This document shows, one piece after another, positions 6,245-40,981 of a stretch of DNA of 64,000 nt. The stretch spans positions 69,873 through 133,872 of the forward strand of contig PCWN01000008.1 in NCBI GenBank assembly GCA_002787355.1, written 5' to 3'. The notes beneath the pieces were generated by a model. The model worked only from the letters and a program-made list of their open reading frames with translations. It did not search any database and was not told where the DNA came from. Every line of letters begins with the position of its first letter. Position 1 is the first letter of the stretch. Source of the stretch: Candidatus Magasanikbacteria bacterium CG11_big_fil_rev_8_21_14_0_20_39_34. Its GTDB lineage: Bacteria; Patescibacteriota; Patescibacteriia; Magasanikbacterales; UBA922. The translations under genes were made by a program, and so were the position numbers.

Positions 6245-6385
6245 TCTCACCCGACCAGGTGCCCACGAGTAAGAGTAATAATTAGACAGGCATACCCTTA
6301 GTATAGCACAATTTTTAAAAAAAATCATGAAAAAAGAGAAGTCAATACAAAAATATGTGGATAAAATAAAATTTGAGTGCAAATA

Positions 6386-6420
6386 TAAAAAAATTCCGAA
6401 GGTATTTCGGAATTTTTTTT
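6386..6420. terminator. strong rho-independent terminator ending the minus-strand rseP-pheS-pheT operon
   Basis: AATTCCGAA ggtat TTCGGAATT followed by 8 T. On the minus strand the hairpin is also followed by a T-run. Confidence 0.7.
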
Positions 6421-6434
6421 GATAAAGTGTATTC

Positions 6435-8867: not shown

Positions 8868-8870
8868 ACT

Positions 8871-9926: not shown

Positions 9927-9941
9927 ATTAGTTCTTTTCTT

Positions 9942-11117: not shown

Positions 11118-11265
11118 AATTTGACGACATACAAGTAAAATTGGTATTATTATGACACAAAGACACCTTGATTGCAAATGCTTGAAGGGGGTCCGTAGTT
11201 TATCTAATTTAGCTTATTTTTCAAAATTCTGTCACAGAAAAATAAGAAAATTTTAATATATTTTT

Positions 11266-11832: not shown

Positions 11833-11911
11833 GTATCTCCCAAAAAAAAATAAAAATCTTTGCCTTTGAAATAGGAAAAGACTTTTTTTCCTGTCAGAAA
11901 TGTAAGAAAGT

Positions 11912-18821: not shown

Positions 18822-19898
18822 ATGATTGAAGCAGCATCACTTTTTATCCTCAGTGGAATTACATTTCTTGTTCCACAGCTTCGTGCTCTTTATTTTAGAA
18901 AAGATCTAGATGAAAAAAGTCAGCCAAATACTTTATCAAACATACCCTACTTTGATTTTTTAAGAGGAATTTCTATAATTGCTGTTATTATTATTCATGT
19001 CATTTATTTTTATAAAGATTCACTTTTACTTCCAAATTTGAATACTCTTCTCGTATTTTCTCTCAACAACATACTACGATTTGCTATTCCTTTTTTTCTT
19101 ATTACTTCTGGAATTTTACTTACCCCTTTTCCCTACACAAGAAAAAATTACAAACATTTTCTTTTGAAAAAATCATTAAAGCTCCTTCCCCCCTACCTTC
19201 TTTGTTGTATCTTTATTGCATTTTATCATCATTACCCACTGGTTAAATCAATTCAACTCACCCTCACCGGTTTTATGGCTGTCCCCTACTATTTTATTTG
19301 TATTCTTTTTCAGGCATATTTTTTTTACCCCCTTCTCCTAAAATATGTAGAAAAAAAATACTTTTTGCAATTCATGTTCCTCTTGTCCATTCTTTGCTAC
19401 TGCATACCCCAAACTTGGCTTATTTGGGGATTCCCCTTTGTAGGAAGATACCTCTTCTTTTTTGCCTACGGGATAAAAATGCGAAATTATTTCCTTTTTA
19501 AAAAATTAGAAAAAAAAGAAAGCCCTTTCTGGCTTTCTTTAATACTTTTTTATTTGACACTTGCCATTGCCTTCCCCGCTTACTACTACAATGTACGTCT
19601 CATCTACGGAATTGCCCTTTTTAACATCTGTATGATATTGCAACCCTACATTAATTTGAAACATAAGCTGAACAAAATTCTTATTGCCTTTGGTAAGAAT
19701 AGTCTTTTTATTTTTCTCACCCACTTTGGACTGATCAGCTTTCTTTTTACTCTTTTAAAAAATGTTTCTCATCTTCCTCTTATCCATGCGGTCCTTATCA
19801 TCGTTCTATGTATTCCCGGAAGTTTTCTCCTGGCAATCATTTTTAAAAAGACATATCAAAAATTCTTTTTTCTTTTTACTCCAAAGAATCTTCCTTAG
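18822..19898 (+). CDS. acyltransferase family 3 (OatA-like) integral membrane protein
   Basis: About 10 TM segments. FDFLRGISIIAVIIIHV matches the conserved acyltransferase_3 N-terminal motif (LDGLRGIAAL..V..H). Confidence 0.7.
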   Translation: MIEAASLFILSGITFLVPQLRALYFRKDLDEKSQPNTLSNIPYFDFLRGISIIAVIIIHVIYFYKDSLLLPNLNTLLVFSLNNILRFAIPFFLITSGILLTPFPYTRKNYKHFLLKKSLKLLPPYLLCCIFIAFYHHYPLVKSIQLTLTGFMAVPYYFICILFQAYFFYPLLLKYVEKKYFLQFMFLLSILCYCIPQTWLIWGFPFVGRYLFFFAYGIKMRNYFLFKKLEKKESPFWLSLILFYLTLAIAFPAYYYNVRLIYGIALFNICMILQPYINLKHKLNKILIAFGKNSLFIFLTHFGLISFLFTLLKNVSHLPLIHAVLIIVLCIPGSFLLAIIFKKTYQKFFFLFTPKNLP

Positions 19899-21719: not shown

Positions 21720-21749
21720 TTGACAAAAAGCCTGCGCGTAGTATATAAT
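21720..21749 (+). promoter_or_regulatory. sigma-70-type promoter upstream of clpC
   Basis: TTGACA (21720-21725), an 18-nt spacer, then TATAAT (21744-21749). Alternatively a 16-nt spacer to TATATA. Confidence 0.5.
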
Positions 21750-21806: not shown

Positions 21807-24323
21807 ATGTCAGAGCACAACAAACTATTAGACAATTTCTCCGCCCATCTCAAAAATACCATTGCTCGCGCTATCACCATAGCAGAACAGATGAATCATG
21901 CCTGTGTTGAGCCATCTCACTTGCTCCTCTCACTTTCCCAAGAAAAAGGATCTATTGGGTATGAAATTCTTGCAAAATTTCAGATAGACTCGGACAAACT
22001 CATTGATATTTTTTCATCTAAACTTGATTTCCCCATTACCCCACAAAATCTCTCAACAGACCAAAAAACAACCACACTTCCCAACCTTGATGAAAAATCA
22101 AAGGAAGTCCTTGAAAAAGCCATGGTCCTCTCCTACCGCGAATCGCACACCTACGTAGGGACTGAACACCTTCTTTTTGGGATCATATCCATCCAAGAAC
22201 CAAAGCTTCAAGCAATTTTTAAAGACCTCAAGATAACAAAAAAAACACTTAAAGACCAAGTGAATTTTATTATCCAAAGTACTAGTGCCTTTCCCACAAT
22301 AGATGATATTCATGGAATTATGGATGATATCCAAGAACTGAACCAAAATGGAGCACAAGGTCATCACTTGTTTGAACGCCCCACACAAAAATCTTCTTCC
22401 TCTGCCATAAATCAATACAGTACAATTCTGACCAACAAGGATCACCAAAAGGATATAGATCCAGTTATTGGTCGTGATAAAGAAATTGAACGTATTATTA
22501 GTATCCTGTGCAGAAGAAATAAAAACAACCCCATACTCCTTGGTGAGGCTGGTGTTGGAAAAACCGCAATAGTGGAAGGACTTTCAAAGAAAATTGCAGA
22601 AGGGAGTGTACCCGATATCCTTAAAAATAAAAAAGTTCTCTCTCTTGACCTTACCCTTTTGATTGCAGGAACTATCTACCGAGGAGAGTTTGAAGATAGA
22701 CTCAAACAAATTATCCAAGAAGTATCAGAAAACTCAAACTATATACTTTTTATTGATGAAATTCATAATATAATTGGTGCGGGATCAAATCAAGGAACCA
22801 TGGATGCCGCCAATATACTCAAGCCAGCACTTGCACGTGGAAAACTCCGATGCATTGGTGCAACAACCTTTGATGAATATGAAAAATATATTGCGTCTGA
22901 CCCAGCACTCGATAGACGTTTTCAAGCAATTCATGTAAAAGAGCCTTCTGCTGAAGAAACAAAGTCTATACTCAATGGTGTAAAAAGATATTACGAAAAT
23001 TTTCATGAGTGCCATATTGATACAGATGCTATCAATGCCGCCGTGGATCTCAGTATCCGTTATGTACACGATAATTATCTTCCAGATAAGGCCATAGATC
23101 TATTAGATGAAGCCTGTGCTTATAGAAGATCACAAAAAAAACTTTCTAAAATACAAAGAAGACAATGGGATTTACTACAAAAAGAAGAATCTCTTGAAAG
23201 AGAAAAAGAAAGAGCCATACTCAAAGAAAACTTCAAGAAAGCCACAGAAATAAAAAATGAAATTGAAAAAATAAAAAATGAAATGAAGAAGCTATCAAAA
23301 CAAAAAAAGCTTGGTCCCAAAATTCAAATTTCAAAAAATGACATAGCCTACGTTCTATCACAAAAGACAAAGATAGACATAAATGTACTTCTCCAGTCAC
23401 AGTGGGAGAATCTTCAACGGCTCAAGAAAGAACTCTCCAAACATATCCTGGGACAAAACCAAGTAATCGAAAATATTGTTGAAACACTTATCCAATCAAA
23501 TTTGGGGATGAAAAATCCAGAAAAACCACAAGCGTCTCTCCTTTTTGCCGGCCCAAGTGGCGTTGGAAAAACATACCTTTCCCAACTCCTTGCAGAACAC
23601 CTCTATCACGATCGTTCCGCCCTTATTCGCTTGAATATGAGTGAGTTTTCTGAATCGCATGGAGTATCAAAACTTCTTGGTTCACCTGCTGGATATGTGG
23701 GATTTAAAGGACGAAATCATTTTCTCGAACAAGTGAAACGGAGGCCCCATTCTATTCTTTTATTTGATGAATTTGATAAAGCCCATGCGGATGTCCGCAA
23801 ACTTCTGCTACAAATTCTTGACGAAGGAACATTGACCGATGCGCAAGGGAAAAAAATCACTTTTAAAAATGCGATTATAATTATTACAACGAGTGTCGGT
23901 GCACAACTTTTTGAAACTTCCAGTATTGGTTTTGATAACAAAGAACTAGGAACAAAACAATACTCATCAAAAATTCAATCGGAAACCAATGATAAATTAA
24001 AAGAATTTTTTGGTGCTGAGCTTTTGGGACGCATTGATAAGATCTGCTTGTTTCATCCACTCGATGCACAAACGATAAAAGGCATTGTTGAGATAAAACT
24101 TGCTGAAATCAACAAAAGACTTCAGGAAAAATTCAAATCAAAAGTAAAAGCAGACAAGCAAGCACTTTCAGCTATTGTTCATGATGCCTACAACAAACAT
24201 ATGGGGGCAAGAAATATTGATAATGTATTACAAAATATTCTTGCACAGACTTTAAAATTTCCACTCGATCAAGAAAAAATTCTTACCCTCACAAAAAAAT
24301 CGGACCACTATGAGCTTATCTGA
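21807..24323 (+). CDS. clpC: Clp/Hsp100 AAA+ chaperone (ATP-binding subunit ClpC-like)
   Basis: Clp N-domain repeats. Two AAA modules (GEAGVGKTAIVEGL; GPSGVGKTYLSQ). A short coiled-coil middle domain. Sensor and RxxR motifs present. Confidence 0.9.
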   Translation: MSEHNKLLDNFSAHLKNTIARAITIAEQMNHACVEPSHLLLSLSQEKGSIGYEILAKFQIDSDKLIDIFSSKLDFPITPQNLSTDQKTTTLPNLDEKSKEVLEKAMVLSYRESHTYVGTEHLLFGIISIQEPKLQAIFKDLKITKKTLKDQVNFIIQSTSAFPTIDDIHGIMDDIQELNQNGAQGHHLFERPTQKSSSSAINQYSTILTNKDHQKDIDPVIGRDKEIERIISILCRRNKNNPILLGEAGVGKTAIVEGLSKKIAEGSVPDILKNKKVLSLDLTLLIAGTIYRGEFEDRLKQIIQEVSENSNYILFIDEIHNIIGAGSNQGTMDAANILKPALARGKLRCIGATTFDEYEKYIASDPALDRRFQAIHVKEPSAEETKSILNGVKRYYENFHECHIDTDAINAAVDLSIRYVHDNYLPDKAIDLLDEACAYRRSQKKLSKIQRRQWDLLQKEESLEREKERAILKENFKKATEIKNEIEKIKNEMKKLSKQKKLGPKIQISKNDIAYVLSQKTKIDINVLLQSQWENLQRLKKELSKHILGQNQVIENIVETLIQSNLGMKNPEKPQASLLFAGPSGVGKTYLSQLLAEHLYHDRSALIRLNMSEFSESHGVSKLLGSPAGYVGFKGRNHFLEQVKRRPHSILLFDEFDKAHADVRKLLLQILDEGTLTDAQGKKITFKNAIIIITTSVGAQLFETSSIGFDNKELGTKQYSSKIQSETNDKLKEFFGAELLGRIDKICLFHPLDAQTIKGIVEIKLAEINKRLQEKFKSKVKADKQALSAIVHDAYNKHMGARNIDNVLQNILAQTLKFPLDQEKILTLTKKSDHYELI

Positions 24324-24663
24324 AAATGAAAAAAATAAAATAGTAGCTCTCCAAGTAGCAAAGACTCGAGCCATACAAAAGAATCGGGTTCTTGATACTG
24401 TACGTGAAAAACAAATAAAAAAAGAGCTTATCTATTACAAGCAAAAACTTTCTGAGTCTTGCAATCAAAATGATTCTTCAAAATCATTTGAAATTTTAGA
24501 AAAACTCATACAACTGCAGGGTGAACTTCTTGAGCTTATCTTACACAAAATCCAAAACAGATACGGCTATGTAAGTGACGCCATAACACAAAAACTTACA
24601 AAAATATTTATAAGGGACAGTCATGAACTTTCAAAAAATGTTCTGACACATTTTTATGGCTAA
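24310..24663 (+). CDS. hypothetical coiled-coil protein
   Basis: 117-aa ORF that overlaps the clpC stop by 14 nt and the next ORF start by 8 nt (translational coupling). Confidence 0.45.
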   Translation: MSLSENEKNKIVALQVAKTRAIQKNRVLDTVREKQIKKELIYYKQKLSESCNQNDSSKSFEILEKLIQLQGELLELILHKIQNRYGYVSDAITQKLTKIFIRDSHELSKNVLTHFYG

Positions 24664-25816
24664 CTCCACTCCAGCACTAAAAACGCAAACTTCCAAACAA
24701 ATTGCCGGTCTCATTAAACAGACGGCTCTTGATGCTATGGTTTCATCAAATGCAGTCCCCTCTTCACAGGCAAAACAAATGGCCGATAAAATAGAAAATG
24801 AAGTGATACAAAATGTTGAGGGTGCGGTTGAAAAAGCCATTGACCAAATAGTTGAAAATTTTGGAAAAGAATTGGATTCTGCAAATGAAAATATTGATGC
24901 TCATCCCGAGGATATTCCCCCTCTTGAAACTCAAGAAGAACTTGGTGATTCTGCTCCAAAAGAAAATATTGCTGGATCAGAAGAACAACCTCCATCAGAA
25001 GAACAAAAGACAGAAAGACCTAAAGGGTCCGCAGCCCTTGGTGGAGAAAAATATTGGCAACAAATGGCCGATTCGCTCAAAGATGAAGACGAAGCGGAAA
25101 AACCTTATGAACCTTTCTCCGAAGAATCCGGGGAAAATACAGAAGAACCCGAAGAACCAACTCCTGAAGAGGAAACAGAACAAATTGAAAGACCAAAGGG
25201 TTCTGCATCCACGGGAGGAGATGAGTATTGGCAACAAATGGCTGATGCCCTCGCACAAGAAGAAGAAAATCAACAAAATGAAAATGAGGAAAAACCATCT
25301 TCTGAGAATGAGGATGGTACTGCCGACGAAGAAGATGCACAAAAAAAAGCAAAAGAGATAAAAGATGCCGCATCTGAAAAAATAAATCAAAAAGAACAGG
25401 AAAAAAGAGCCCTTGTAAAAGACAGAAATGATATTGAAGCCAAAATCACCCCAACCAAGAGAAAAATACGTTGGGAACTTGCTTTGATTACCGCACGTGG
25501 CATTGTCATATTTGTGGCTGTAATTGGAATTCTTATTGGACTCGTACTTCTTATCTTTGGAATTGGAATGGCTATTTTAGGTTTCTGTGGAGAGTATATT
25601 GCAAGAATGTCTGTAAACATTGGCCTAAGTTTGCAAAAAATAGTAGAATATAAAGGAGAAATAGCTAAATTTGAAAAAGACATAGAAACTCTAGATCAAC
25701 GTATTAAAAACATAGATCGAATGATTCAACTGATCCAAAGAAATGCCCAACGAGAAAGTAAACAAGTTTTTCAACGTTACCTTTTAACACAAAAAAACGC
25801 ATATGGACGAAAATAA
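24656..25816 (+). CDS. acidic Glu/Pro-rich repeat protein with C-terminal TM hairpin and coiled coil
   Basis: Two copies of ERPKGSA..GG.(K/E)YWQQMAD(S/A)L spaced 58 aa apart. Their DNA repeats start near 25010 and 25184. Followed by the hydrophobic stretch GIVIFVAVIGILIGLVLLIFGIGMAILGF and a heptad-like C-terminus. Confidence 0.6.
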   Translation: MANSTPALKTQTSKQIAGLIKQTALDAMVSSNAVPSSQAKQMADKIENEVIQNVEGAVEKAIDQIVENFGKELDSANENIDAHPEDIPPLETQEELGDSAPKENIAGSEEQPPSEEQKTERPKGSAALGGEKYWQQMADSLKDEDEAEKPYEPFSEESGENTEEPEEPTPEEETEQIERPKGSASTGGDEYWQQMADALAQEEENQQNENEEKPSSENEDGTADEEDAQKKAKEIKDAASEKINQKEQEKRALVKDRNDIEAKITPTKRKIRWELALITARGIVIFVAVIGILIGLVLLIFGIGMAILGFCGEYIARMSVNIGLSLQKIVEYKGEIAKFEKDIETLDQRIKNIDRMIQLIQRNAQRESKQVFQRYLLTQKNAYGRK

Positions 25817-27038
25817 AAAACGCATCATTTTCATAATAGGTTTTGTGTTCATGACTTTGGTTTTAGGTTATGCCCTTTATAAAGTATTTTTTCAAAAGGG
25901 AACACAAGAAGAACCACCTGTTAATCTTGGACTCATAGAACAAGGGGCCTTTCCTTCTTCAGGACAAACAACCACAACAAATGGACGTGTCGTACCTGGA
26001 ACCGGTGTTCTTCCCTCTTCACAAGAATCCGTATCTACTAATATCCTTACTCAAAAAGACAGACTCCTCCAAGAAAGTCCTACACTTCAAGTAACTGAAG
26101 AACGAATCAACAATGTAGCCCTCGGAGCAAATGGGAATGTAAGTTTTTATAGCCCTCAAGATGGAAAATTTTATAGACTTCAGGATGATGGCACTATACA
26201 AAGTATCTCAGACAAAATTTTTTATAATGTTGACAAAGTTACCTGGGCTAAAAAAGATGATGAAGCAATACTCCAATATCCCGATGGATCCAACATTTAC
26301 TATAATTTTGATACCCAAGAACAAGCAACCCTTCCCAAATATTGGGATGACTTTTCTTTCTCCGCAAAAGGTGATCAAATCGCCGCGAAAAGTTTAGGGT
26401 TTTCTCCAGAAAACAGATGGCTCGTGGCATCAAGCCCAAATGGGAAAAATACCAAATTTATTGAACCGTTGGGAGATAATGCGGATGAAGTCATCGTAAA
26501 TTGGTCCCCCAATGAACAAGTACTAGCGTTTTCCAAAACGGGTCAAGACTTAGGCTCAGACCGGCAAGAAATCCTCTTTGTAGGCGCAAATCAAGAAAAT
26601 TTTAACTCCACAGTAGTTGAGGGACGAGGATTTGAACCTCTTTGGTCTCCAAGTGGAGAAAAACTTTTATATAGTGTTTATAGCGCAAACAGCCAATTTA
26701 AACCAGAACTCTGGATTGTAAATGGAGCCCCGGGGTCTATCGGGAGTGGAAGAAAAGCATTAAAAATTAACACCTGGGCAAACAAATGTGCATTTGAAAA
26801 TGAACGCTTTATTTATTGTGCAGTACCAGTATCTCTTGATCAAGGTGCTGGCTTTGAACCAAGTATTGCAGATAATATTTCTGATCAGGTTTTCAAAATA
26901 GATACACAAACCGGTGTAAAAACGGAGATACCCATTGATGGTTATCACACCATTGATACTCTTATCATAGATAAACAACACAAACAAATTTTCTTTACTG
27001 ATAAAGTAAACTCAGGATTATTCAAAATACCTCTATGA
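25803..27038 (+). CDS. membrane-anchored protein with TolB/PD40-like beta-propeller repeats
   Basis: N-terminal TM (IIFIIGFVFMTLVLGYALY). Repeated W-S-P-(D/N/S)-G blades (VNWSPNEQVLAFS, PLWSPSGEKLLYSV, WLVASSPNGKN). Confidence 0.55.
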   Translation: MDENKKRIIFIIGFVFMTLVLGYALYKVFFQKGTQEEPPVNLGLIEQGAFPSSGQTTTTNGRVVPGTGVLPSSQESVSTNILTQKDRLLQESPTLQVTEERINNVALGANGNVSFYSPQDGKFYRLQDDGTIQSISDKIFYNVDKVTWAKKDDEAILQYPDGSNIYYNFDTQEQATLPKYWDDFSFSAKGDQIAAKSLGFSPENRWLVASSPNGKNTKFIEPLGDNADEVIVNWSPNEQVLAFSKTGQDLGSDRQEILFVGANQENFNSTVVEGRGFEPLWSPSGEKLLYSVYSANSQFKPELWIVNGAPGSIGSGRKALKINTWANKCAFENERFIYCAVPVSLDQGAGFEPSIADNISDQVFKIDTQTGVKTEIPIDGYHTIDTLIIDKQHKQIFFTDKVNSGLFKIPL

Positions 27039-27679
27039 TAAAACCAAGACACCTTGTTGTAATATTTATACCAGCCATTATTCTCATTATTTGGATACTG
27101 TATGGTTTTCTTTCTAAAAATTACCAAGACGCAGTTAAATTAAAAGAAATTTATGATCGGGATAATAGCCTTGATCTCATCCCTATTCTTCCCGGTGATC
27201 CACTCATTGGAAACCCAAGAGCGGCCACCAATATCATTGTATTTGAAGATTTTGGCTGTGATGGTTGTGCAGCTCAAACGGCACTTCTGGACCAGCTTTT
27301 GGAAAAGTACCCCGATAAATTTAATATTATTTGGAAAGGACTTCCAGTAACACATTTTCCCGATTCATCAGAAGAAGTTCACTCTTACGCGTATTGTGCC
27401 AATAAACAAGGAAGATTCTCAGCATTCAAAGATATAGCATTTGCAAATAATAAAAATTTATCAACTGAGAATCTAAAAATAATTAGTGATACTATTCATC
27501 TTGATCCAAAAGAACTTGATGATTGTCTTCATTCTGAATTTCCAAAAGAAAAAATTAAACAAGTACAAGACTTAGCCTACACACTCAATATTGCATCCGT
27601 TCCAACAATTTTTATAGACAATAAAGAGGTCCTTCCTCAAGATTCTCTTGAAGGTTGGGAAGCCTATTTTGAATTGTAA
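27035..27679 (+). CDS. DsbA-like thioredoxin-fold thiol:disulfide oxidoreductase, membrane-anchored
   Basis: N-terminal TM. The CxxC motif FGCDGCAAQ is in a thioredoxin-like context and the gene is DsbA-sized. It overlaps both neighbours by a few nt. Confidence 0.7.
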   Translation: MIKPRHLVVIFIPAIILIIWILYGFLSKNYQDAVKLKEIYDRDNSLDLIPILPGDPLIGNPRAATNIIVFEDFGCDGCAAQTALLDQLLEKYPDKFNIIWKGLPVTHFPDSSEEVHSYAYCANKQGRFSAFKDIAFANNKNLSTENLKIISDTIHLDPKELDDCLHSEFPKEKIKQVQDLAYTLNIASVPTIFIDNKEVLPQDSLEGWEAYFEL

Positions 27680-27681
27680 TT

Positions 27682-29571
27682 ATGACAAAAAAATTATTTT
27701 TTTTCTTATCCATCCTTGGTATTACCATAATGCCAAGTTTTGTATTTGCACAAGATTCCATACAAAAAATTATTGATGCGGCACAAGATACTACAAGCGA
27801 TCTTACCAATCAGTATGGGGAGAGTGTCCACCAAGAAACCATAGATGTTATACGGACACCCCAACTTCGCATCACTATACCTGGATTAAATTTTGCCAAT
27901 GTTGACGATATCAACAAACTGGTCAAAAGCCAAAACGGCGAAGCCGGAGAAAAATATATTGTCATCCCCTTTCTCGGTGATTACATGGTAGTGATGTACC
28001 GCTATGCAATCATAGCCATTGGGATCCTTGCCGTGGTATCTATTATTTATTCTGGAGTTCAATGGATGATTCCTGGAAATATTATTACCAAAGATGACTC
28101 TTCAGTAAATCAGGCAAAAGAACGAATTGCACGAACGCTCATTGGTCTGGGGCTTGCTGTGGGATCCTATACCATTCTCTATGCTATAAATCCAGCACTA
28201 ACTCAATTCAAAAATTTAAAACTTCTCTACGTTCCAGCACAAGATGTGAACCTCATTGTTATGGACAAAGGAACTCCAGGTGATTTTTCATCGGTGTCCT
28301 ATGCTTCTGGAGTTGGAAAAAATAGAAAAATAGACAATACAGAGTTTGATGACATGTTCAAAGCTTTTGCAAACTGTTTTAATCTTGACTGGAGAGTACT
28401 CAAGGGTATTGCATATCAAGAATCACGCTTGAATGAAGGAAGCACCAACAAATATGGTTTTAAAGGGCTTTTTCAGACCCGTGAAGACTTTTGTCCAAGC
28501 TATCTCTCTGGCTACCCTGCTTGGTCTGCCTATTGTAAAACAGGACTTCATAATGCATGGATTAATACAGCAGCGGGGGTAAACTCTATTTATCAAGCAC
28601 TGGAAAAAGTTCGCGCTGAATGCTCAGATAAATTAAATACATTTGATACATTTACCGCAGTATACATTGCACATAACTCCGGAAATTTTGGGCTTGCAAA
28701 AACATTGGAAAATAGTAATTGCCAAGGATGGCCCGCTATGCGTGATGGTCTAGAAAAATTTTGGAAGGAATATAAAAAGCGACCAAAAAATTGGAGTCCC
28801 GGTTTTGGTACAAGACGTGCTGATTATGCGCGTAAAACCGCACAGGTATTTATTGACATTGGAGTTGTAGATCCAAAAAATACAAGCCAAAATGGAAATG
28901 CCCAGTGTCCCCTCAACTTTTCTCCGGAACAAGTAGTGCCAGAACTTTCTGGAAAAGTACCTGAAAATATAAATGCAAGTTTTACCTGTTCACCTACCTT
29001 TGACGGAAAATCCATTATTGCCATTGGAGACTCTATTACCTACAATGCAGAATCGTTTGCCAAGCAAATACGATCGAACTGTCCTAAAATTAATGTCACT
29101 ATTAATGCACGTCCAGGACGACCAACTTCAGAAATGCTCCAAGAAGCAAATAAAATTGATTTTTCCACCTATGATTATTTGATCATTCTGGGTGGTGTAA
29201 ATGACATTGGAAATGCAACAGGCGTACGAAATAACCTTACTGCCATTTACCAAAAAGCAAAAGAAGGCAATACAAAAGTCATAGCACTTACCATTACCCC
29301 TTGGAAGGGATACAGTACCTATAGTGATAAAAATGGAACCAACACAAATGATATCAATAGATGGATACGTCAAAAGGCCCCTACTTCGGATGGAAACCTT
29401 ATTGACTATGCCATCGATTCATATGCACTCTTGGAAGATCCAAGTAACCCTGGCGCTATGCGTACCCTCTTTTGGAGCCATGGAGATCCACTTCACCCCA
29501 ACGCCACAGCACACAAACTCATAGCACAAACTATTGCACAACAAGTATTTGGTGGTAAGTTAATTAAGTAA
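27682..29571 (+). CDS. secreted, Cys-rich lytic-transglycosylase-like + SGNH/GDSL hydrolase fusion with internal two-helix membrane module
   Basis: Signal peptide. Residues about 100-180 form a hydrophobic hairpin (IIAIGILAVVSIIYSGVQWM…LIGLGLAVGSYTILYAINP). The SLT-like motif is …IAYQESRLNEG…GLFQ. The C-terminal SGNH blocks are IAIGDSITYN, ILGGVNDIGN and GDPLHPN (DxxH). Confidence 0.7.
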   Translation: MTKKLFFFLSILGITIMPSFVFAQDSIQKIIDAAQDTTSDLTNQYGESVHQETIDVIRTPQLRITIPGLNFANVDDINKLVKSQNGEAGEKYIVIPFLGDYMVVMYRYAIIAIGILAVVSIIYSGVQWMIPGNIITKDDSSVNQAKERIARTLIGLGLAVGSYTILYAINPALTQFKNLKLLYVPAQDVNLIVMDKGTPGDFSSVSYASGVGKNRKIDNTEFDDMFKAFANCFNLDWRVLKGIAYQESRLNEGSTNKYGFKGLFQTREDFCPSYLSGYPAWSAYCKTGLHNAWINTAAGVNSIYQALEKVRAECSDKLNTFDTFTAVYIAHNSGNFGLAKTLENSNCQGWPAMRDGLEKFWKEYKKRPKNWSPGFGTRRADYARKTAQVFIDIGVVDPKNTSQNGNAQCPLNFSPEQVVPELSGKVPENINASFTCSPTFDGKSIIAIGDSITYNAESFAKQIRSNCPKINVTINARPGRPTSEMLQEANKIDFSTYDYLIILGGVNDIGNATGVRNNLTAIYQKAKEGNTKVIALTITPWKGYSTYSDKNGTNTNDINRWIRQKAPTSDGNLIDYAIDSYALLEDPSNPGAMRTLFWSHGDPLHPNATAHKLIAQTIAQQVFGGKLIK

Positions 29572-29572
29572 A

Positions 29573-32290
29573 ATGTTTTTTCTTCAAAAAAAATATACCT
29601 GGAAATTTGCAATTGGATTCCTCATGGTTTTTTCCTTTACTTTTTTTTATCCCCCACATCCAGTTTTTGCTCTGGTTAAAGAGAGCAGCCCCATTGCAGG
29701 AGTAGATCTCTATTCGTTTAAATCTGATTATGGCTGCAGCAGTAAAAATCCAAAAGAACAATCAGAACACTTCATCATTGTTCCCTCCGGAAGTAGCAAA
29801 ATCAATAGAACCTATATTTATTTTCATGGTTTATCCAACCCTCCCGAACATACCACAAAAGAGTTAATGTGCCATGGGTATCTTAACCTCTGTGATTCTG
29901 CTGCACAATTGCAAACACTTGGCCTCAATGTTGCCATTATTGGCGCACGACTCAATAAGGCCGGATCAACACGTGAATTTAGAGATTTTAATACTGCGGA
30001 ACTCAATTGTTTCCTCAATAAGGCATCTCAGGAACTCACATCCTTGGGAAGAGGTTATGGGTCAGACTTAATTCTTGTAGGTCATAGCGCTGGTGGACGC
30101 TCGATAAAAGAAGCTCTCAACAGTGACATACATTTCAATGGCTTGACCCCAAGCATGTGTATTTTCCTTGATCCCTGTTATGGTGACTGGTGTGATGTTG
30201 CCGTCAAATCAAATAAATGTGGTAGCTATGTTTTTTATGGTGCAGGTGGTCCGGGTGAGACCATAGATGCTACCAATAAAGCAATCAAACTGGCTGCAAA
30301 CCCGCAATCCATTCGCCTGGTGCAGATGCCCAATGGTTTCCACTCAAAAATACCAAGACTTTGTTTTACTGAACACGTGGATGAAAAAGCATGCCAAGGA
30401 AATGGAACTGTCATTCAAGAAGGAATCCTCAGTTCCGTTATACCTATCGTAGCTGGCGATTCAGATAAAATCATTCCTCAGGCTACCAGTGATAGCTATG
30501 AAAAACTCGTTGAAAATATTCTTTCGAAAACCAAACTAGAAACGGAAACACCAGGCTATAACCCAAATGTAAATATAGAAGATAAAGTTACCGTAAATCA
30601 AACGAATGGAAAACTTTACTTAAATATAAATACACTTTCAGAATATATTGGATGGCTCTATCAATATAGTCTTATTGCAATAACTATAATTGCTGTAGTT
30701 ATTGTCATCTATTCTGGAGTCCAGTGGATGGTTTCTGGTGGAAATAGTGCCACTATTAGTGAAGCCAAAAAAAGAATCGGTCAAACATTTGTAGCCTTGC
30801 TCTTGGCACTTGGATCCTATACCATTCTCTATGCAATTAATCCAAAAACAACAAAATTTGGTCAGCTTAATATTCTCGTTTTTCAGGCAGAAAATACTCC
30901 AATGGAAAATGAATCATTAAATGCAGACGCCTATAATTCCGTTAACTTTAACGCAAACGATCTCCTTGGGAATATCAAAAAACCAAACTGGGATGCTAAA
31001 ACCTTTGATTGTTCAAAGAAAGATTCTTACTCTCCTGCAGGTGTTCTCCCCAGCAATCAAACAATTACTTATACCTGTGATGGAATGGAAGGAAATGTTA
31101 CCAGCATTCCACAAATGAAAGTTCCACTTTGTAGAGCAGCAGAAATTGCAAAGAAAAATGGATATACCCTTCAGGTAAGAAGTTCCTATCGACCATTTGA
31201 AATACAGGTAAAATTATGGTGTGAAGACACACGACCTCCTGAGATACGAAGAAAGTTTATCGCAACACCTGGATTTTCCAATCATGGTCATGGTGTGGCA
31301 ATAGATGTTTTCCTCTATAAAAATGGAAAACAACTCACTCTTTATGGAAGTTCAGGACAATGTAAGACAAGTCCCCGTTTTGTAAAAGAAATTGCAGATA
31401 TATTTTACCTTGCAGACCCAAACTTTGTTCGACTGGAAACGGAAATTTGGCACTTTGAATATGGGACCATGGGTACCTCTGCAAGAAATCGCTATGATAC
31501 CCTTCCACAGACCTGTACGGGAAAGCCTTCTGGAGTAAGTAATGTTAAAGCAGAAGGAGGAACTTCCCCCATCTCCAATGTTGGTGCAGCCAGTAATGCA
31601 AATATTATTGCTCCAGCCCAAAGTGGACAAAGCCCGGCAGCACAATCAAACCAATGTACATTTACCGAAAAACGTTGGAATACCAATACTCGCACAACCG
31701 CACTTTTCAGAAAAGAGACCAATGCCCCATATAATACCATTATCAGCCAGGATAAAAGCTACGTCAGCAAATCTGACCCAAGATGTAGTGTCTGTGAACA
31801 AGATCAGGTTTTGTTTGATCCAAGCAGCGTTGGAATCCGCGGCGTATCAAGCGTTCGTGTCTGTTGGGCATATGTTGATCAAATCAAACAAATGTTGAAA
31901 ACAATAGTACAAAATAACCAACTGGAGATAACCAGTCTCGTAGGATACCGACCAAACCGGACGGTTGGAGCAGTCAATGCAGATGGATTTCGAACCGGCG
32001 CTGGCGGACACTTTTATGGTATGGCCATAGACATCAATGCAGAGTATAATGGCCTCTACAGTGGATGTTCTGGTTTTGATCCAATAGCTCATCCTCTTGG
32101 ACCTATAACGTGTTCAGGACCTTCAAATGGGGGTCCCTGGAATCCTCCAGCAAATCCAAATAAAACTATTTACTACAATAGCCCCGTGTACCGCCTATTC
32201 ACCTCCAATGGATGGAAGTGGGGTGCAACTAATATTTCCGGAAGGACACGAGACTTTATGCACTTCTCCATTCATGATGACAGTCAGTAA
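29573..32290 (+). CDS. secreted, Cys-rich alpha/beta-hydrolase + two M15 (VanY/LAS-type) peptidase domains with the same internal two-helix membrane module
   Basis: Signal peptide. GxSxG esterase motif LILVGHSAGG. Residues about 355-435 are paralogous to the hairpin of the upstream gene (LIAITIIAVVIVIYSGVQWM…LLLALGSYTILYAINP), with near-identical nucleotides around 30706-30740 and 30810-30848. Two M15 motifs are present: SSYRPFEIQVKLW…GFSNHGHGVAIDV and VGYRPNRT…GGHFYGMAIDIN. Confidence 0.7.
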   Translation: MFFLQKKYTWKFAIGFLMVFSFTFFYPPHPVFALVKESSPIAGVDLYSFKSDYGCSSKNPKEQSEHFIIVPSGSSKINRTYIYFHGLSNPPEHTTKELMCHGYLNLCDSAAQLQTLGLNVAIIGARLNKAGSTREFRDFNTAELNCFLNKASQELTSLGRGYGSDLILVGHSAGGRSIKEALNSDIHFNGLTPSMCIFLDPCYGDWCDVAVKSNKCGSYVFYGAGGPGETIDATNKAIKLAANPQSIRLVQMPNGFHSKIPRLCFTEHVDEKACQGNGTVIQEGILSSVIPIVAGDSDKIIPQATSDSYEKLVENILSKTKLETETPGYNPNVNIEDKVTVNQTNGKLYLNINTLSEYIGWLYQYSLIAITIIAVVIVIYSGVQWMVSGGNSATISEAKKRIGQTFVALLLALGSYTILYAINPKTTKFGQLNILVFQAENTPMENESLNADAYNSVNFNANDLLGNIKKPNWDAKTFDCSKKDSYSPAGVLPSNQTITYTCDGMEGNVTSIPQMKVPLCRAAEIAKKNGYTLQVRSSYRPFEIQVKLWCEDTRPPEIRRKFIATPGFSNHGHGVAIDVFLYKNGKQLTLYGSSGQCKTSPRFVKEIADIFYLADPNFVRLETEIWHFEYGTMGTSARNRYDTLPQTCTGKPSGVSNVKAEGGTSPISNVGAASNANIIAPAQSGQSPAAQSNQCTFTEKRWNTNTRTTALFRKETNAPYNTIISQDKSYVSKSDPRCSVCEQDQVLFDPSSVGIRGVSSVRVCWAYVDQIKQMLKTIVQNNQLEITSLVGYRPNRTVGAVNADGFRTGAGGHFYGMAIDINAEYNGLYSGCSGFDPIAHPLGPITCSGPSNGGPWNPPANPNKTIYYNSPVYRLFTSNGWKWGATNISGRTRDFMHFSIHDDSQ

Positions 32291-32299
32291 CATTATTTT

Positions 32300-33640
32300 A
32301 TGAGTAAAATGGAAACTATTTTTTCTTGTACACACTGTGATGCACAATACAAAAAATGGGTTGGACGATGCCTTGAATGCGGTAAATGGGGAACCGTAGA
32401 AGAAAAACATCTTTCCAAAAAAGAAGAAGAAAAAAGTAAAACACCACGAGCCTCGGCAACTATGGAAGTTGCCTCTTCTGTCAAAATGAAAAATTTTGAG
32501 AGAATCCAAACCAATATCTCAGAGTTTGATAGAACGGTTGGATTTGGTATTGTTCCTGGAAGTTTTATTTTGTTGGGTGGTGAACCTGGAATAGGAAAAT
32601 CAACTCTTTGCGCACAAATAGCAAGTTCTGTACCAAACTCACTGTACTTCTCGGCAGAAGAGTCTATCCAGCAAGTGGGTATGCGCATACAACGCCTTAA
32701 CCTCAATGGAGATACATCCAAATTATCAAATGAAACCTGTGTAGAAATCATTGCAAGTACGATCCTCAATGAAAAACCTTCACTTGCCATTATTGACTCA
32801 ATACAAACAATTTATTCTGAGGAAGTTTCCGGTGAACCGGGATCTATTTCTCAAGTGCGTGCTTCTACGGTAAAACTTCTTGAAGTATGCAAGTCCTCGG
32901 GAACAAGTGTTATTATCATAGGACATGTTACCAAAGATGGTGCCGTTGCCGGTCCACGTACACTTGAACATCTTGTTGATACTGTTTTGTACCTTGAGGG
33001 TGACCGATACCACCAGATGAGAATACTTCGTACCGTCAAAAATCGTTTCGGCTCCACTGATGAAATTGGAATCTTTGAAATGGAAGAAAATGGATTACAA
33101 GGAGTGCAAAACCCATCACAAAATCTTCTTTTGGAACGAACCATGAATCTTTCAGGATCAGTTATTACCTGTCTTCTTGAAGGAACAAGGCCTCTTCTAG
33201 TAGAAGTGCAAGCACTTGTAAATAAAACAGCTTTTGGGTATCCATTACGGAAATCAAGTGGTTTTGATATAAATCGTCTCCATGTGCTTCTTGCTGTACT
33301 GCAAAAAAGAACCAACCTCCCGTTTGGTGGCTATGATGTTCATGTAAATATTGTTGGAGGAATCAAGGCAAATGAACCTGCCGTAGATCTTGCCGTTTGT
33401 CTTGCGCTTGCCAGTTCATTTAAAGATAAAGCTCTTGGTAACGATCTTGTTGTCTTTGGAGAAGTTGGTCTTGGCGGTGAAGTACGCAGTACCTCACATA
33501 TTCAAAAACGTCTAAAAGAGTGTGAACACCTCGGGATGAAGCGAATCATCACTCATCTTCCAGCAAAATTAAAAATAAAAGATACCGGTGTAAATATAAC
33601 CAATGTAGAAAATATTAATGAACTTATAAAACTTACATAG
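32300..33640 (+). CDS. radA: DNA repair protein RadA (Sms)
   Basis: N-terminal C4 zinc finger (CTHCDAQYKKWVGRCLECGKWG). RecA-like ATPase with GGEPGIGKSTL and KNRFG. Lon-like C-terminal domain. Confidence 0.9.
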   Translation: MSKMETIFSCTHCDAQYKKWVGRCLECGKWGTVEEKHLSKKEEEKSKTPRASATMEVASSVKMKNFERIQTNISEFDRTVGFGIVPGSFILLGGEPGIGKSTLCAQIASSVPNSLYFSAEESIQQVGMRIQRLNLNGDTSKLSNETCVEIIASTILNEKPSLAIIDSIQTIYSEEVSGEPGSISQVRASTVKLLEVCKSSGTSVIIIGHVTKDGAVAGPRTLEHLVDTVLYLEGDRYHQMRILRTVKNRFGSTDEIGIFEMEENGLQGVQNPSQNLLLERTMNLSGSVITCLLEGTRPLLVEVQALVNKTAFGYPLRKSSGFDINRLHVLLAVLQKRTNLPFGGYDVHVNIVGGIKANEPAVDLAVCLALASSFKDKALGNDLVVFGEVGLGGEVRSTSHIQKRLKECEHLGMKRIITHLPAKLKIKDTGVNITNVENINELIKLT

Positions 33641-38088: not shown

Positions 38089-39552
38089 ATGGAGCAAAGA
38101 AAGGTAAACTTTCTTCCAAATGACTCTGAGGGTCAAAGTTGGAAGATACAGAAATCACAGCATAGAAAAAATCGATTTTGGATTATTTCCATAATCGTTG
38201 TTTTTTTGTTGGGAGGATGTCTTACTTACGGCCTCATGCCGGCCTCAAACCCCGGGGATACACCTGAGAGTTATGATCCTATCACTCTAGAACCTGTAGA
38301 ACCTCAAGGGTTCTTCCAAAGACTAAAACATCTGGTATTTAACAAAGAAGCAAAGCTTGCTGGAGAAAAAAAGGACCGCATTAATATTCTGTTGCTTGGT
38401 ATGGGAGGGCTTGGACATGACGGGCCATATCTCACCGATACCCTTATGGTGGCCAGTATCAAACCTTCTACCAACGAAGTTGCTCTTATCTCCATTCCAC
38501 GGGATCTTGCAGTTAATATACCTGGGTATGGTATTCGAAAAATCAATAATGTAAATGCTTTTGGAGAAACAAAAAAGAAAAATTTTGGACCGGCATTTGT
38601 AAGTGATGTTTTCAAAAAGACCTTTGATCTGGATATTCACTATTATCTTCGTGTTGATTTTAAAGCATTCACTCAAATCATAGATGATATTGGAGGTGTA
38701 AAAGTAGATGTAGAAAAATCATTCGTAGATCAACAATACCCGGCACCAAATGATGCCTACCAAGTTATAAAATTTGATAAAGGCATTCAAACTATGGATG
38801 GTGATACCGCCCTCAAATTTGCACGATCTAGACATGGAAATAATGGAGAAGGTTCAGACTTTGCACGAGCAAGAAGACAACAAAAAGTTCTTCTTGCAGT
38901 AAAAGAAAAACTTATTTCCTTCAAAACCCTTATTAATCCAATTCGCATAAATAATATTCTCAATACACTTCAAGAAAATATAAGTACCAACATGTCTTTC
39001 TCTGATATCATTGGCTTCCTCAAAATGTCAAAAGATTTTGATTCTAATAACATCAGTACACTTGTACTTGACAATGGCGTGAATGGATATCTCAAAAATA
39101 CTTTTTCGGAAAATGGAGCCTACCTTCTCGAACCGGTTTCTGGAAACTATGATGATATTAAAGATGCCATGAAAAATATTTTTGATAAGGATTTTCAATC
39201 ACAGATACGAAACTTCTCTATTGGAGAAACCGTTCCAGCACAGGATAAACCGGATGTAGATACGGCAAAAATAGAAATTCAAAATGGGACTTGGCGAGCA
39301 GGACTCGCTGCACGAGTAAAAAAGACACTCAACGATAAAAACATTGATGTAACTATTCTTGGAAATACTCAAGAACGTCCCTATATGCAAAGTGGAATAT
39401 ATGATCTCAGTTCTGGAGAATTTTCCTCGACAGTAGAAGATATAGCCGATACACTCCACATTCCTATCAAAAAAAGTCCTCCTGAAAACGAAACCTATGA
39501 TTCCAAAACCCAAATTTATATTATCCTTGGTGAGGACTTTCAGGAAACCTAA
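38089..39552 (+). CDS. LytR-CpsA-Psr (LCP) family cell-envelope glycopolymer transferase with LytR_C domain
   Basis: N-terminal TM. LCP core INILLLGMGGLGHDGPYLTDTLMVASI…ISIPRDL…KINNVNAFG…DDIGGV. C-terminal LytR_C-like region. Confidence 0.85.
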   Translation: MEQRKVNFLPNDSEGQSWKIQKSQHRKNRFWIISIIVVFLLGGCLTYGLMPASNPGDTPESYDPITLEPVEPQGFFQRLKHLVFNKEAKLAGEKKDRINILLLGMGGLGHDGPYLTDTLMVASIKPSTNEVALISIPRDLAVNIPGYGIRKINNVNAFGETKKKNFGPAFVSDVFKKTFDLDIHYYLRVDFKAFTQIIDDIGGVKVDVEKSFVDQQYPAPNDAYQVIKFDKGIQTMDGDTALKFARSRHGNNGEGSDFARARRQQKVLLAVKEKLISFKTLINPIRINNILNTLQENISTNMSFSDIIGFLKMSKDFDSNNISTLVLDNGVNGYLKNTFSENGAYLLEPVSGNYDDIKDAMKNIFDKDFQSQIRNFSIGETVPAQDKPDVDTAKIEIQNGTWRAGLAARVKKTLNDKNIDVTILGNTQERPYMQSGIYDLSSGEFSSTVEDIADTLHIPIKKSPPENETYDSKTQIYIILGEDFQET

Positions 39553-39589
39553 TTGAATTTACATTTATTATTCGTTTTAAGATCATTTT

Positions 39590-40981
39590 ATGGCAACACC
39601 GGGACATATCGAAAATACAGAACTTCCAGTAATAGCACTTGTTGGTCGTGTCAATGTTGGAAAATCAACACTTTTTAATACGCTTATTGAACAGGCCAAG
39701 GCTATCGTGTCCGCAATTCCAGGAACCACCCGTACCAATAATGAAGGGTACGTCATCTGGCAAGGAAAACATGCAAAGGTCATAGATACCGGTGGGCTTA
39801 CTTTTGATATGAATATTCCTCTTGAAGACGATATCATAAAGCAGAGTGAAGCCGCAGTAAAACTTGCTGATGTTATTTTATTTGTAACGGATTCACAAAC
39901 AGGAATATTGCCACAAGAGTTGGAGCTTGCAAAACGACTCCGAAAAATAAAAGATAAAACAATTTTTGTTTTAGCCAACAAAGCAGACAGTGTAAAAAAA
40001 GAAGCAAACATTTATACGGGAGGTTGGGAAAAGCTTGGCTTGGGTGAGGTCATTCCTGTTTCTGCCGCCAGTGGACGCAATACCGGTGATCTTCTTGATC
40101 TGATATTTGAAACTCTTGAAAAGCAAGGCATAAAAACAAAAGTTCCCCCAATGGAAAAAGAAATTCAAATCGCTCTCATTGGAAAACCAAACGTAGGAAA
40201 ATCATCCCTCTTCAACAAAATAATTGGTGAAGACAAAGTGATTGTAAGTGATATGGCTCATACAACACGCGAACCCTATGACACTCTCATAAAATACCCC
40301 TACACAGATGGTGACTCAACAAAAGAAGTCCTGATCAATTTTGTAGATACAGCAGGTATTCGAAGAAAATCTCGCGTTGGGGGTTCACTTGAAAAAGTTG
40401 GCATCCACAAAAGTATTGATTCCATTGAAAAATCTGACATTATTCTCTTTGTCATTGATGGAACAGAAGTTATCTCCGCACAAGATATGCAACTTGGTGG
40501 ACTCCTTGAACGTAGATCGAAAAGTGCCATAATTCTCGTAAACAAGTGGGATCTTGCAGATGATTCGAGCGATCATGCACGAAATCAAATAACTAAAAAA
40601 GTGTACTCATATTTCCCTCATCTTAATTTTGCTCCTATACTTTTTGTAAGCGGAAAAACGGGTCTAAAAGTACACCAAGTATTCCCCATGATTATGAAGG
40701 TTTGGAAAAGTAGACATACAAAAATAGCAAATCGTGGTTTGGAAAAATTTTTGGAAGGAGTTCTCAAACAACACCAACCAGCGCGTGGAAAAGGAACCCG
40801 CCAACCAAAGGTTTTGGGATTTCACCAAATTGCCACAGCTCCACCAATTTTTGAGCTTTTCATAAAGTACAGAACATCGCTCCATAGATCTTATCTTAAC
40901 TTCTTGGAAAATAGACTTCGTGAACAATTTGATTTTATTGGAACTCCTATTGTGATAAAATTAAAGAAGGTAAAAAGATAA
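39590..40981 (+). CDS. der: ribosome-associated GTPase Der (EngA)
   Basis: Two tandem G domains (GRVNVGKSTLFN / DTGG; GKPNVGKSSLFN / DTAG / NKWD) followed by a KH-like C-terminal domain. Confidence 0.9.
   Translation: MATPGHIENTELPVIALVGRVNVGKSTLFNTLIEQAKAIVSAIPGTTRTNNEGYVIWQGKHAKVIDTGGLTFDMNIPLEDDIIKQSEAAVKLADVILFVTDSQTGILPQELELAKRLRKIKDKTIFVLANKADSVKKEANIYTGGWEKLGLGEVIPVSAASGRNTGDLLDLIFETLEKQGIKTKVPPMEKEIQIALIGKPNVGKSSLFNKIIGEDKVIVSDMAHTTREPYDTLIKYPYTDGDSTKEVLINFVDTAGIRRKSRVGGSLEKVGIHKSIDSIEKSDIILFVIDGTEVISAQDMQLGGLLERRSKSAIILVNKWDLADDSSDHARNQITKKVYSYFPHLNFAPILFVSGKTGLKVHQVFPMIMKVWKSRHTKIANRGLEKFLEGVLKQHQPARGKGTRQPKVLGFHQIATAPPIFELFIKYRTSLHRSYLNFLENRLREQFDFIGTPIVIKLKKVKR

Follow-up and report, generated by a model that had tools for sequence, protein, structure and literature searches.

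Two adjacent enzymes with a shared pilin-like hairpin

A stretch of 64,000 nucleotides (nt) from contig PCWN01000008.1 of Candidatus Magasanikbacteria bacterium CG11_big_fil_rev_8_21_14_0_20_39_34, hereafter the window (64 kb), contains two adjacent genes, gene A (27682-29571; 629 amino acids, aa) and gene B (29573-32290; 905 aa). The two are separated by 1 nt and encode predicted secreted enzymes that are built around the same hydrophobic two-helix hairpin. Genes A and B with their domains, and the operon described below, lie on the forward strand. A preliminary description of this DNA, made from the sequence alone, had given both open reading frames (ORFs) exactly these positions and lengths. 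The gene B sequence is identical to the GenBank entry annotated as 'hypothetical protein COV59_04230', on a contig of 506 kb, which makes the window chromosomal DNA. From the N- to the C-terminus, gene A comprises a signal peptide, a pilin-like module, an SLT domain and an SGNH domain, and gene B a signal peptide, an alpha/beta-hydrolase domain, the pilin-like module, an M15 (VanY) domain and an M15_4 domain, as assigned from sequence, Pfam, AlphaFold2 and Foldseek.

The extended pilin-like module, delimited in an alignment of 11 proteins (A1), spans aa 58-190 in gene A (27853-28251) and aa 313-445 in gene B (30509-30907). A profile hidden Markov model of the module, built from the same alignment, matched the two genes with E values of 1.8e-51 and 9.6e-47, respectively. 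In gene A the module consists of the pre-hairpin motifs RITIPGLNF and IPFLGDY, the two helices and a post-hairpin strand. Its two-helix hairpin occupies aa 98-170 (27973-28191), with AlphaFold2 helices at 98-129 and 139-169 and a Pfam T4SS_pilin match at aa 111-167 (28012-28182). The hairpin of gene B lies at aa 353-423 (30629-30841), where the AlphaFold2 model has helices at 353-386 and 392-422 with a beta-hairpin ahead of them at 339-352, and where a weak match to DUF6112 was found (aa 352-409).

The similarity between the two proteins was confined to aa 21-191 of A and aa 292-444 of B, with 36% identity and a composition-corrected BLASTP E value of 1e-20. For the shared module of approximately 130 aa the Smith-Waterman score was 246, against 30.9+-5.2 in 2000 composition-preserving shuffles (z = 41). 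The hairpin on its own gave z = 31, whereas the unrelated transmembrane (TM) hairpin of a neighbouring gene gave z = 0.9, and the likeness of A and B is therefore not one of generic TM composition. The pre-hairpin motif is degenerate in gene B, and the pre-hairpin part alone had no significant similarity to that of A. Across the proteins of alignment A1, which carry unrelated enzymes, the hairpin has 46% mean column identity and 8 invariant positions. The region is dominated by two hydrophobic helices and could on that account be taken for a generic, low-complexity TM stretch; this candidate was ruled out by the z scores of 41 and 31, the E value of 1e-20 and the 492 protein clusters that match the module at E<=1e-30. 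The preliminary description called the two genes paralogous, which holds within the module; outside it the proteins are unrelated, and paralogy is thus limited to the module.

Two patches of near-identical nucleotide sequence that had been pointed out between the genes are real. The first (28045-28068 and 30707-30730) codes for IYSGVQWM, and the second (28162-28194 and 30812-30844) for GSYTILYAINP with 31 of 33 nt identical. For the same 33-nt patch, 17-26 identical positions were counted in each of the remaining module-gene pairs, among them the within-genome pairs of three related loci, and across the second helix as a whole A and B had unremarkable nucleotide identity. This suggests that the adjacent genes underwent gene conversion over a short tract or that their codons coincide by chance.

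No named family had been seen for the hairpin in the preliminary description, and a VirB2/TrbC-like fold was offered there as a guess. The named family exists: at the profile level the hairpin is an extended member of PF18895 (T4SS_pilin), the VirB2/TrbC-like pilin family of Patescibacteria, whose name comes from the type IV secretion system (T4SS). This assignment was made because of the PF18895 match, the retrieval of stand-alone pilins, the tandem hairpins that match TrbC and the relative located beside a VirB4. Gene A scored 21.4 bits against PF18895 (E 2.6e-4; gathering threshold 26.6 bits), and gene B had no match to it and in Pfam hit the related DUF6112 only (E 5.9e-3). Proteins in the equivalent position of four syntenic loci in related genomes (L005, L006, L007 and L009) exceeded the cutoff with 29.0-36.4 bits, and PF18895 was matched (E<=1e-3) by 118 of the 142 best family members. 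The A1 profile also recovered stand-alone proteins annotated as PF18895, 107-246 aa long, with E values from 5e-24 to 3e-4. The hallmark of the subfamily is a conserved pre-helix extension, P-x3-I-x-IPGL-x-F ... IPFLGEY, together with a conserved post-hairpin strand.

Like VirB2 and TrbC, A and B have a signal peptide followed by two hydrophobic helices with a short basic loop, as seen in sequence, hydropathy and AlphaFold2 models. They depart from these pilins in size, which for VirB2/TrbC is a mature length of approximately 70-120 aa that is essentially the hairpin, compared with 629 and 905 aa and catalytic domains on one or both sides here. They also depart in location, with no virB3, virB4 or virB6 neighbours of a T4SS locus either in the window or in five annotated related cassettes. 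The module profile had no meaningful match among PDB sequences, so no solved pilin is close at the sequence level, and a tblastn search with a TrbC-positive hairpin as a bridge to plasmid TrbC gave no match. Foldseek was run on the whole A and B models, and its matches were dominated by the large enzyme domains.

Other arrangements of the hairpin were observed among the relatives. In locus L027 a VirB4-like ATPase is encoded at 6340-8208 (P-loop_TraG 2e-23, AAA_10, TraC_F_IV), and a hairpin-only pilin of 135 aa that matches the module profile follows at 9833-10240, approximately 1.6 kb downstream with one 333-aa ORF in between. In contrast to the fusion proteins, the short relatives have a genuine T4SS context here. 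Some of the proteins matched by the profile (P0083, P0030, P0037) bear 3-11 tandem pilin hairpins in one polypeptide. P0083 (1147 aa) has 11 of them and matched T4SS_pilin with 7e-80 and TrbC/VirB2 (PF04956) with 1e-42, and P0030 has several hairpins plus an SLT domain. Such concatenation is difficult to square with a simple role as pilus subunit.

The catalytic motifs reported in the preliminary description are present in both proteins at the places given there, and its SLT, SGNH and two M15 assignments each exceeded the Pfam gathering score. The SLT domain of gene A (aa 225-345; 28354-28716) scored 24.9 bits against a cutoff of 21.3 (1.6e-5). It contains YQES at aa 245 with the catalytic pair E247-S248, GLFQ at 262-265 and HNSG at 331-334. 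Among 12 homologues E247, S248, G262, F264 and Q265 are invariant and H331 is nearly so. The AlphaFold2 model of this domain has a confidence score (pLDDT) of approximately 90 and was matched by Foldseek to MltF. By its sequence, gene A is placed among the family-1 lytic transglycosylases (PF01464).

The C-terminal SGNH/GDSL esterase domain of gene A (aa 447-613; 29020-29520) matched Lipase_GDSL_2 with 57 bits against a cutoff of 32.9 (4.5e-15) and has its conserved blocks at 449 (GDSIT), 504 (GGVND) and 602 (DPLHP). It is classed on these grounds as an SGNH/GDSL hydrolase (PF13472). The model, again with pLDDT of approximately 90, has TM-scores of 0.6-0.8 to GDSL structures; the best Foldseek matches were carbohydrate acetyl-esterases (7toh, E 1e-6), followed by sialate O-acetylesterase and PatB. 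These fold neighbours, acetyl-xylan esterase, sialate O-acetylesterase and PatB, together with the fusion to an SLT domain, point to a putative Ape1-type peptidoglycan O-acetylesterase function.

The N-terminal domain of gene B (aa 35-285; 29675-30427) has no Pfam match, and the alpha/beta hydrolase previously read from its motifs was corroborated by a conserved HG/GHSxGG/D/H pattern, AlphaFold2 and Foldseek. The motifs are FHG at 84-86, GHSAGG at 170-175, D200 and H257; in 11 homologues G86, G170-H-S172-x-G174 and D200 are invariant and H257 near-invariant. Profile matches to PDB sequences were weak and every one was an alpha/beta hydrolase. The model (pLDDT 70-90) gave Foldseek matches to esterases, cutinases and PETases with E values of about 1e-5 and TM-scores of about 0.5. 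As modelled, the domain is an alpha/beta hydrolase of the serine esterase type.

C-terminal of the hairpin, gene B has two M15 domains. The first, VanY-type zinc peptidase domain (aa 523-630; 31139-31462) scored 41.1 bits against a cutoff of 25 (1.9e-10) and contains SNHGHGVAID at 569-578 and EIWH at 624-627, that is, the H-x6-D...H pattern at 571-578/627. Its pLDDT is above 90, and the closest relatives in the PDB are YodJ/LdcB-type carboxypeptidases. The second (Peptidase_M15_4, aa 813-899; 32009-32269) scored 43.6 bits against a cutoff of 25 (4.7e-11), with GGHFYGMAID at 811-820, DFMHF at 894-898 and H-x6-D...H at 813-820/897; it was modelled at low confidence because it was covered by one homologue only. 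Both are assigned by profile to the LAS/M15 zinc peptidases (PF02557 VanY and PF13539 Peptidase_M15_4).

Signal peptides were recognised by inspection in both proteins, as before, each of them composed of an n-region rich in K, a hydrophobic core and a cleavage-type VFA motif. They cover aa 1-23 in gene A (27682-27750; VFA/QD, hydropathy peak at aa 4-24) and aa 1-33 in gene B. The loop of the hairpin is net basic, with 4 basic and 3 acidic residues in A, 3 basic and 1 acidic in B and a family consensus of AKKRI. The positive-inside rule applied to this loop places it in the cytoplasm and both flanks outside. An out-in-out topology with all enzymes extracytoplasmic, as in membrane-inserted VirB2, is thus predicted. 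The description of the proteins as Cys-rich was appropriate for gene B, whose 22 Cys (2.4%) are the highest proportion in the 32 genes tabulated (mean 0.9%), and was not for gene A with 8 Cys (1.3%). In both proteins the Cys are even in number and are all located in the flanking domains, outside the signal peptide and the hairpin. The even count, together with a DsbA-like gene directly upstream, agrees with an outside location of the enzymes, and with the membrane-tethered topology proposed earlier. The DsbA-like protein probably forms the disulfides of A and B.

A family of fusions and its conserved operon

The preliminary description regarded the pair as unusual in its architecture; the pair belongs to a large family in Patescibacteria and sits in a conserved housekeeping operon. 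An exhaustive HMMER search with the module profile was made in 1.84 billion cluster representatives (clusters at 50% identity) and matched 57,669 of them at E<=1e-3, 13,683 at <=1e-10 and 492 at <=1e-30. The best 150 matches were mostly proteins of 350-1150 aa with one full-length module near the N-terminus or in mid-protein. Pfam domains were counted in 142 of the best matches. SLT was the most frequent (n = 21), followed by Amidase_2 (n = 18), Peptidase_C39_2 (n = 13), VanY, Peptidase_M15_4 and Lipase_GDSL_2 (n = 10 each), NlpC/P60 and Peptidase_M23 (n = 7 each), CHAP (n = 3), GH18 (n = 2) and Glucosaminidase (n = 1). Domains are shuffled round the module, as seen by local BLAST: SGNH is N-terminal in some relatives and C-terminal in others, and the alpha/beta-hydrolase N-domain of gene B reappears with varied C-terminal partners.

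In the window, genes A and B belong to a series of eight same-strand genes that runs from clpC (from 21807) to radA (to 33640) in the order clpC, g117, g386, g411, DsbA-like gene, gene A, gene B, radA, with overlaps or gaps of 1-14 nt and no gap longer than 9 nt. The first gene encodes a ClpC/ClpB-type AAA+ chaperone (21807-24323), recognised from its sequence and from orthologues with Clp_N, AAA and AAA_2 domains. It overlaps by 14 nt with g117 (24310-24663), which encodes a helical protein of 117 aa with no family assigned. The 386-aa product of g386 (24656-25816) has acidic repeats, a coiled coil and a TM hairpin and gave sub-threshold matches only. The 411-aa product of g411 (25803-27038) has an N-terminal TM helix and a probable beta-propeller (PD40 1.6e-3, below cutoff). 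For all three, searches of Pfam, NCBIfam, PHROGs and PDB sequences returned sub-threshold or spurious matches only; they may be partners of the hydrolases or regulate them (24310-27038). The DsbA-like thiol-disulfide oxidoreductase (27035-27679) has an N-terminal TM helix and matched Thioredoxin_4 (9.6e-19) and DSBA (1.2e-8) in Pfam. RadA/Sms, identified from its sequence, is the final gene of the operon (32300-33640) and starts 9 nt 3' of gene B; recG follows on the opposite strand. A candidate promoter, TTGACA-18-TATAAT (21720-21749), lies 58 nt 5' of clpC and rests on a 12/12 match to the sigma-70-type consensus. No site as strong was found between clpC and radA, and the lone strong promoter-like site agrees with one eight-gene transcript. 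The GC content is even, 32-43% across the window and 36-40% from clpC through radA.

Related loci were recovered by genome and metagenome scans with one narrow peptide pattern, SY[TV]IL[YF][AS]IN, and are therefore biased to relatives of A and B. The cassette recurs in Magasanikbacteria, Paceibacter, other metagenome-assembled genomes (MAGs) of Patescibacteria and metagenomic contigs. The window and 16 distinct related loci have a full-length module and readable flanks, and in every one of them g411/DsbA was found on the 5' side and/or RadA on the 3' side. Orthologues in these loci were 37-51% (ClpC), 35-84% (g411) and 47-68% (RadA) identical, and those of RadA sit directly 3' of the module proteins. 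The g411 orthologues lie immediately 5' of the DsbA-like gene wherever the flank extends so far, which makes g411 the best-conserved uncharacterised partner in the cassette. By sequence, an orthologue of g117 could be detected in L001, and L003, L028 and L029 have a similarly sized gene in the same position; weak orthologues of g386 were found in L001 and L004. The DsbA-like gene is directly 5' of the module proteins in every cassette with sufficient flank except L016 and L012. The cassette is conserved in Patescibacteria and looks vertically inherited.

Between the DsbA-like gene and radA, the position of A and B forms a slot that holds 1-3 module proteins per locus, with enzyme domains that vary between genomes. 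The combination of SLT+SGNH with alpha/beta-hydrolase+M15+M15 occurs in reverse gene order in L003. L028 has SGNH-module-SLT, L006 module-VanY and L009 a VanY domain C-terminal of a mid-protein module; several slot proteins have C-terminal domains without a Pfam match.

Some further observations were made in and around these loci. In L016 the position of the DsbA-like gene is occupied by a 742-aa protein of DUF4215 Cys-rich repeats (7576-9804). A second type of locus was found in L011 (4826-7157), from the same MAG as L004, in which MutS, a DsbA-like gene, a module protein of 510 aa and UvrA follow each other; the pairing of DsbA-like and module protein thus recurs outside the clpC-radA cassette. 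Three loci with module proteins (L007, L010 and L012) come from MAGs labelled 'uncultured Gammaproteobacteria'. L007 and L012 have the Patescibacteria-type clpC/propeller/module cassette, with ClpC and g411 35-41% identical, and the labels of all three are probably wrong. Synteny extends beyond the cassette: upstream, at 9942-12790 of the window, are an M50 protease, a 188-aa ORF (the LemA position in L028) and an M48 protease, and downstream, at 38089-40981, LytR-CpsA-Psr and the Der GTPase, in the same order as in L028, which is from another sample. An Acyl_transf_3 membrane acyltransferase is encoded at 18822-19898, just 5' of a divergent phosphoglucomutase gene, and is kept as the first gene of L001. 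The Acyl_transf_3 family takes in the acyltransferase domain of the peptidoglycan O-acetyltransferase OatA. If the protein O-acetylates the cell's own glycan, a self substrate would be available for the SGNH esterase of gene A.

Proposed function and alternatives

The function of A and B may be depicted as follows. Both would be exported via Sec as multi-domain peptidoglycan-modifying enzymes, and the internal two-helix hairpin would fix each protein in the cytoplasmic membrane with its basic loop inside and its flanks outside. The heads of gene A would be a lytic transglycosylase and an SGNH carbohydrate esterase, and those of gene B an alpha/beta-hydrolase esterase N-terminal and two LAS/M15 zinc peptidases C-terminal of the hairpin. 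By analogy with Ape1 and lytic transglycosylases, the SGNH esterase would strip the O-acetyl groups that block the fused lytic transglycosylase. A and B would fill a 'hydrolase slot' in which the anchor module is retained across genomes and the enzyme domains are exchanged. Peptidoglycan is the probable substrate of both, and the likeliest target would be the producer's own sacculus, in turnover, space-making or daughter-cell separation. We propose with moderate confidence that, at the outer face of the membrane, the hairpin-anchored enzymes remodel the peptidoglycan of the cell that produces them. Action on the own wall is favoured because the membrane hairpin limits the reach of the enzymes and because the locus is a housekeeping operon, apparently vertically inherited. 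It is also favoured because M15 peptidases of the VanY/LdcB type and pairs of esterase and transglycosylase are typical of wall maturation and turnover.

Several points weigh against this proposal. The choice of the own wall over a host wall is one that we infer. The enzyme domains change in the orthologous slot while the neighbouring genes stay 35-50% identical, and such turnover is seen more typically in effectors or endolysins adapting to varied targets, and less so in housekeeping autolysins. Conservation of the hairpin goes far beyond the needs of a lipid anchor, which suggests a specific protein partner. Neither A nor B reaches the gathering score of PF18895. For Saccharibacteria, related stand-alone pilins have been reported to be essential and linked to the T4SS (PMC10633639, PMC12102498). 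In class ABY1, virB4 neighbourhoods (+-20 genes) often hold radA and recG (PMC12102498, section 14), so a wider link to the T4SS is possible in other genomes.

A and B might instead be enzyme-bearing minor pilins, which VirB4/VirB6 machinery loads at the tip or along the length of a pilus so that their heads cut the host wall at the epibiotic contact. We regard this as unlikely, although the module is homologous to pilins of T4SS loci and its hairpin is strongly conserved while the enzymes swap between genomes. In canonical VirB2 and TraA pilins both termini are exposed on the outside of the filament. Given such outward-facing termini, fusions on either side of the hairpin would be topologically compatible, and relatives with the reversed order exist; globular domains of 250-480 aa would, however, clash in a packed filament unless carried by rare or terminal subunits. 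The genomic context also disagrees: no T4SS family was found among the 42 window ORFs scanned against Pfam, and no T4SS gene within 10 kb of the cassette in five related loci with precomputed Pfam annotation. The full-length module is bound to the clpC-radA operon, and hairpin-only relatives are found in other places, in one case next to a VirB4-like ATPase. The preliminary description had likewise considered a surface-appendage assembly site, and nothing in the window links the pair to an appendage or secretion locus. A T4SS and its pilin array are essential to the epibiotic growth of one saccharibacterium (PMC10633639), and a recognisable VirB1 is missing in most Patescibacteria with VirB2 homologues (PMC12102498), both of which would suit minor pilins; no pilus has yet been demonstrated for any Patescibacteria T4SS (PMC12857230). 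That the module is a loading handle, by which a T4SS pilus is armed with interchangeable wall-cutting heads that breach the host wall, seems rather improbable. If it were true, the clpC-radA slot would swap transglycosylase, esterase, amidase and peptidase heads to track host wall chemistry, and a concrete job would be found for the essential and enigmatic pilin system in these epibionts.

The hairpin could also dock the hydrolases to a trans-envelope machine, a T4SS or a type IV pilus, where they would open the own peptidoglycan locally for its assembly as space-makers of the VirB1 type, in the way that TraG of pIP501, PrgK of pCF10 and CwlT do in conjugation systems of monoderms. Membrane-anchored multi-domain hydrolases with SLT and peptidase domains are usual in T4SS of monoderms (papers cited in PMC12102498), recognisable VirB1 is scarce in Patescibacteria (PMC12102498), and the conserved hairpin suggests a protein partner. 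We nevertheless consider this quite improbable, as the association with a T4SS locus is lacking in the window and in the annotated related cassettes, and as up to 5 catalytic domains per locus, changing between genomes, exceed the needs of a local gap-maker. An origin from a prophage or phage, as lysis genes or as pieces of a tape-measure protein with lysin domains, is extremely unlikely, although it was allowed for in the preliminary description and PHROGs matches connect SGNH to a tail-fibre family (6e-8), and M15 to one tape-measure family (2e-4) and one endolysin family. These are single-domain matches only, there are no phage genes nearby, the GC content is uniform across the region and the genes are part of a chromosomal clpC-radA operon in many genomes; the module was not found in 2.9 million viral contigs (IMG/VR).

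Relation to known systems

A large part of bacterial diversity belongs to the Patescibacteria, whose cultivated members live attached to other microbes. Little is known of the ways in which they remodel their own wall and pass through that of a host. The present analysis, which favours remodelling of the producer's own wall, provides a defined set of genes in the candidate phyla radiation that would serve to remodel the wall or to attack that of a host. In a literature search of non-exhaustive coverage, which did return surveys of the pilins, no report of pilin-hydrolase fusions or of the clpC-radA cassette was found. Each of the enzyme domain families and the pilin family is already known. 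Three features appear to be undescribed: the role of an extended pilin module as general anchor of peptidoglycan hydrolases, its fixed slot in a clpC-radA operon that also encodes a DsbA-like protein and a beta-propeller membrane protein, and the exchange of enzyme domains inside this slot.

By analogy, the closest functional counterparts of A and B are TraG of pIP501, PrgK of pCF10 and CwlT of ICEBs1, which are likewise membrane-tethered multi-domain hydrolases with an SLT or muramidase domain and a peptidase. These have a single N-terminal TM anchor, are combined with CHAP, NlpC-P60 or LytM partners and are encoded inside conjugation loci, whereas the partner domains in A and B are SGNH, alpha/beta hydrolase and M15. 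In the Ape1 system of Neisseria and other bacteria, an SGNH esterase co-occurs with family-1 lytic transglycosylases, as in gene A. Lytic transglycosylases need a free C6-OH on N-acetylmuramic acid, which is provided by de-O-acetylation, and it is a reasonable inference that the SGNH domain would license the fused lytic transglycosylase in this way. Gene A differs from the Ape1 system in that both activities are fused in one membrane-anchored polypeptide, and its SGNH domain has no specific sequence match to Ape1. Gene B has the H-x6-D...H zinc motifs and the VanY/M15_4 membership in common with VanY, LdcB/YodJ and M15 endolysins of phages; it differs from these in having two tandem M15 domains, preceded by an esterase and a pilin-like hairpin.

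With the VirB2-like pilins of Patescibacteria (PF18895), as described in Ca. Southlakia epibionticum and Ca. Nanosynbacter lyticus (PMC10633639, PMC12102498), A and B share the hydrophobic two-helix hairpin, the short basic loop, the preceding signal peptide and the restriction to Patescibacteria. Those pilins are small proteins of approximately 100-250 aa, often arrayed near virB4 (PMC12102498, PMC10633639, PMC12857230), with a mean identity of 25% within an array. In A and B the hairpin is internal to enzymes of 600-900 aa, has a pre-hairpin extension, is much better conserved and belongs to a clpC-radA operon without T4SS genes. Until now, VirB2-like pilins were catalogued only as small stand-alone proteins beside virB4; here the same hairpin, in an extended and unusually conserved form, is the predicted anchor of a wide range of peptidoglycan hydrolases, and the module profile matches at least 492 clusters at E<=1e-30. 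This suggests that 'T4SS pilin' matches in these genomes should not automatically be taken to mean pilus subunits, and that pilin-like hairpins are possibly a general module for membrane display or delivery.

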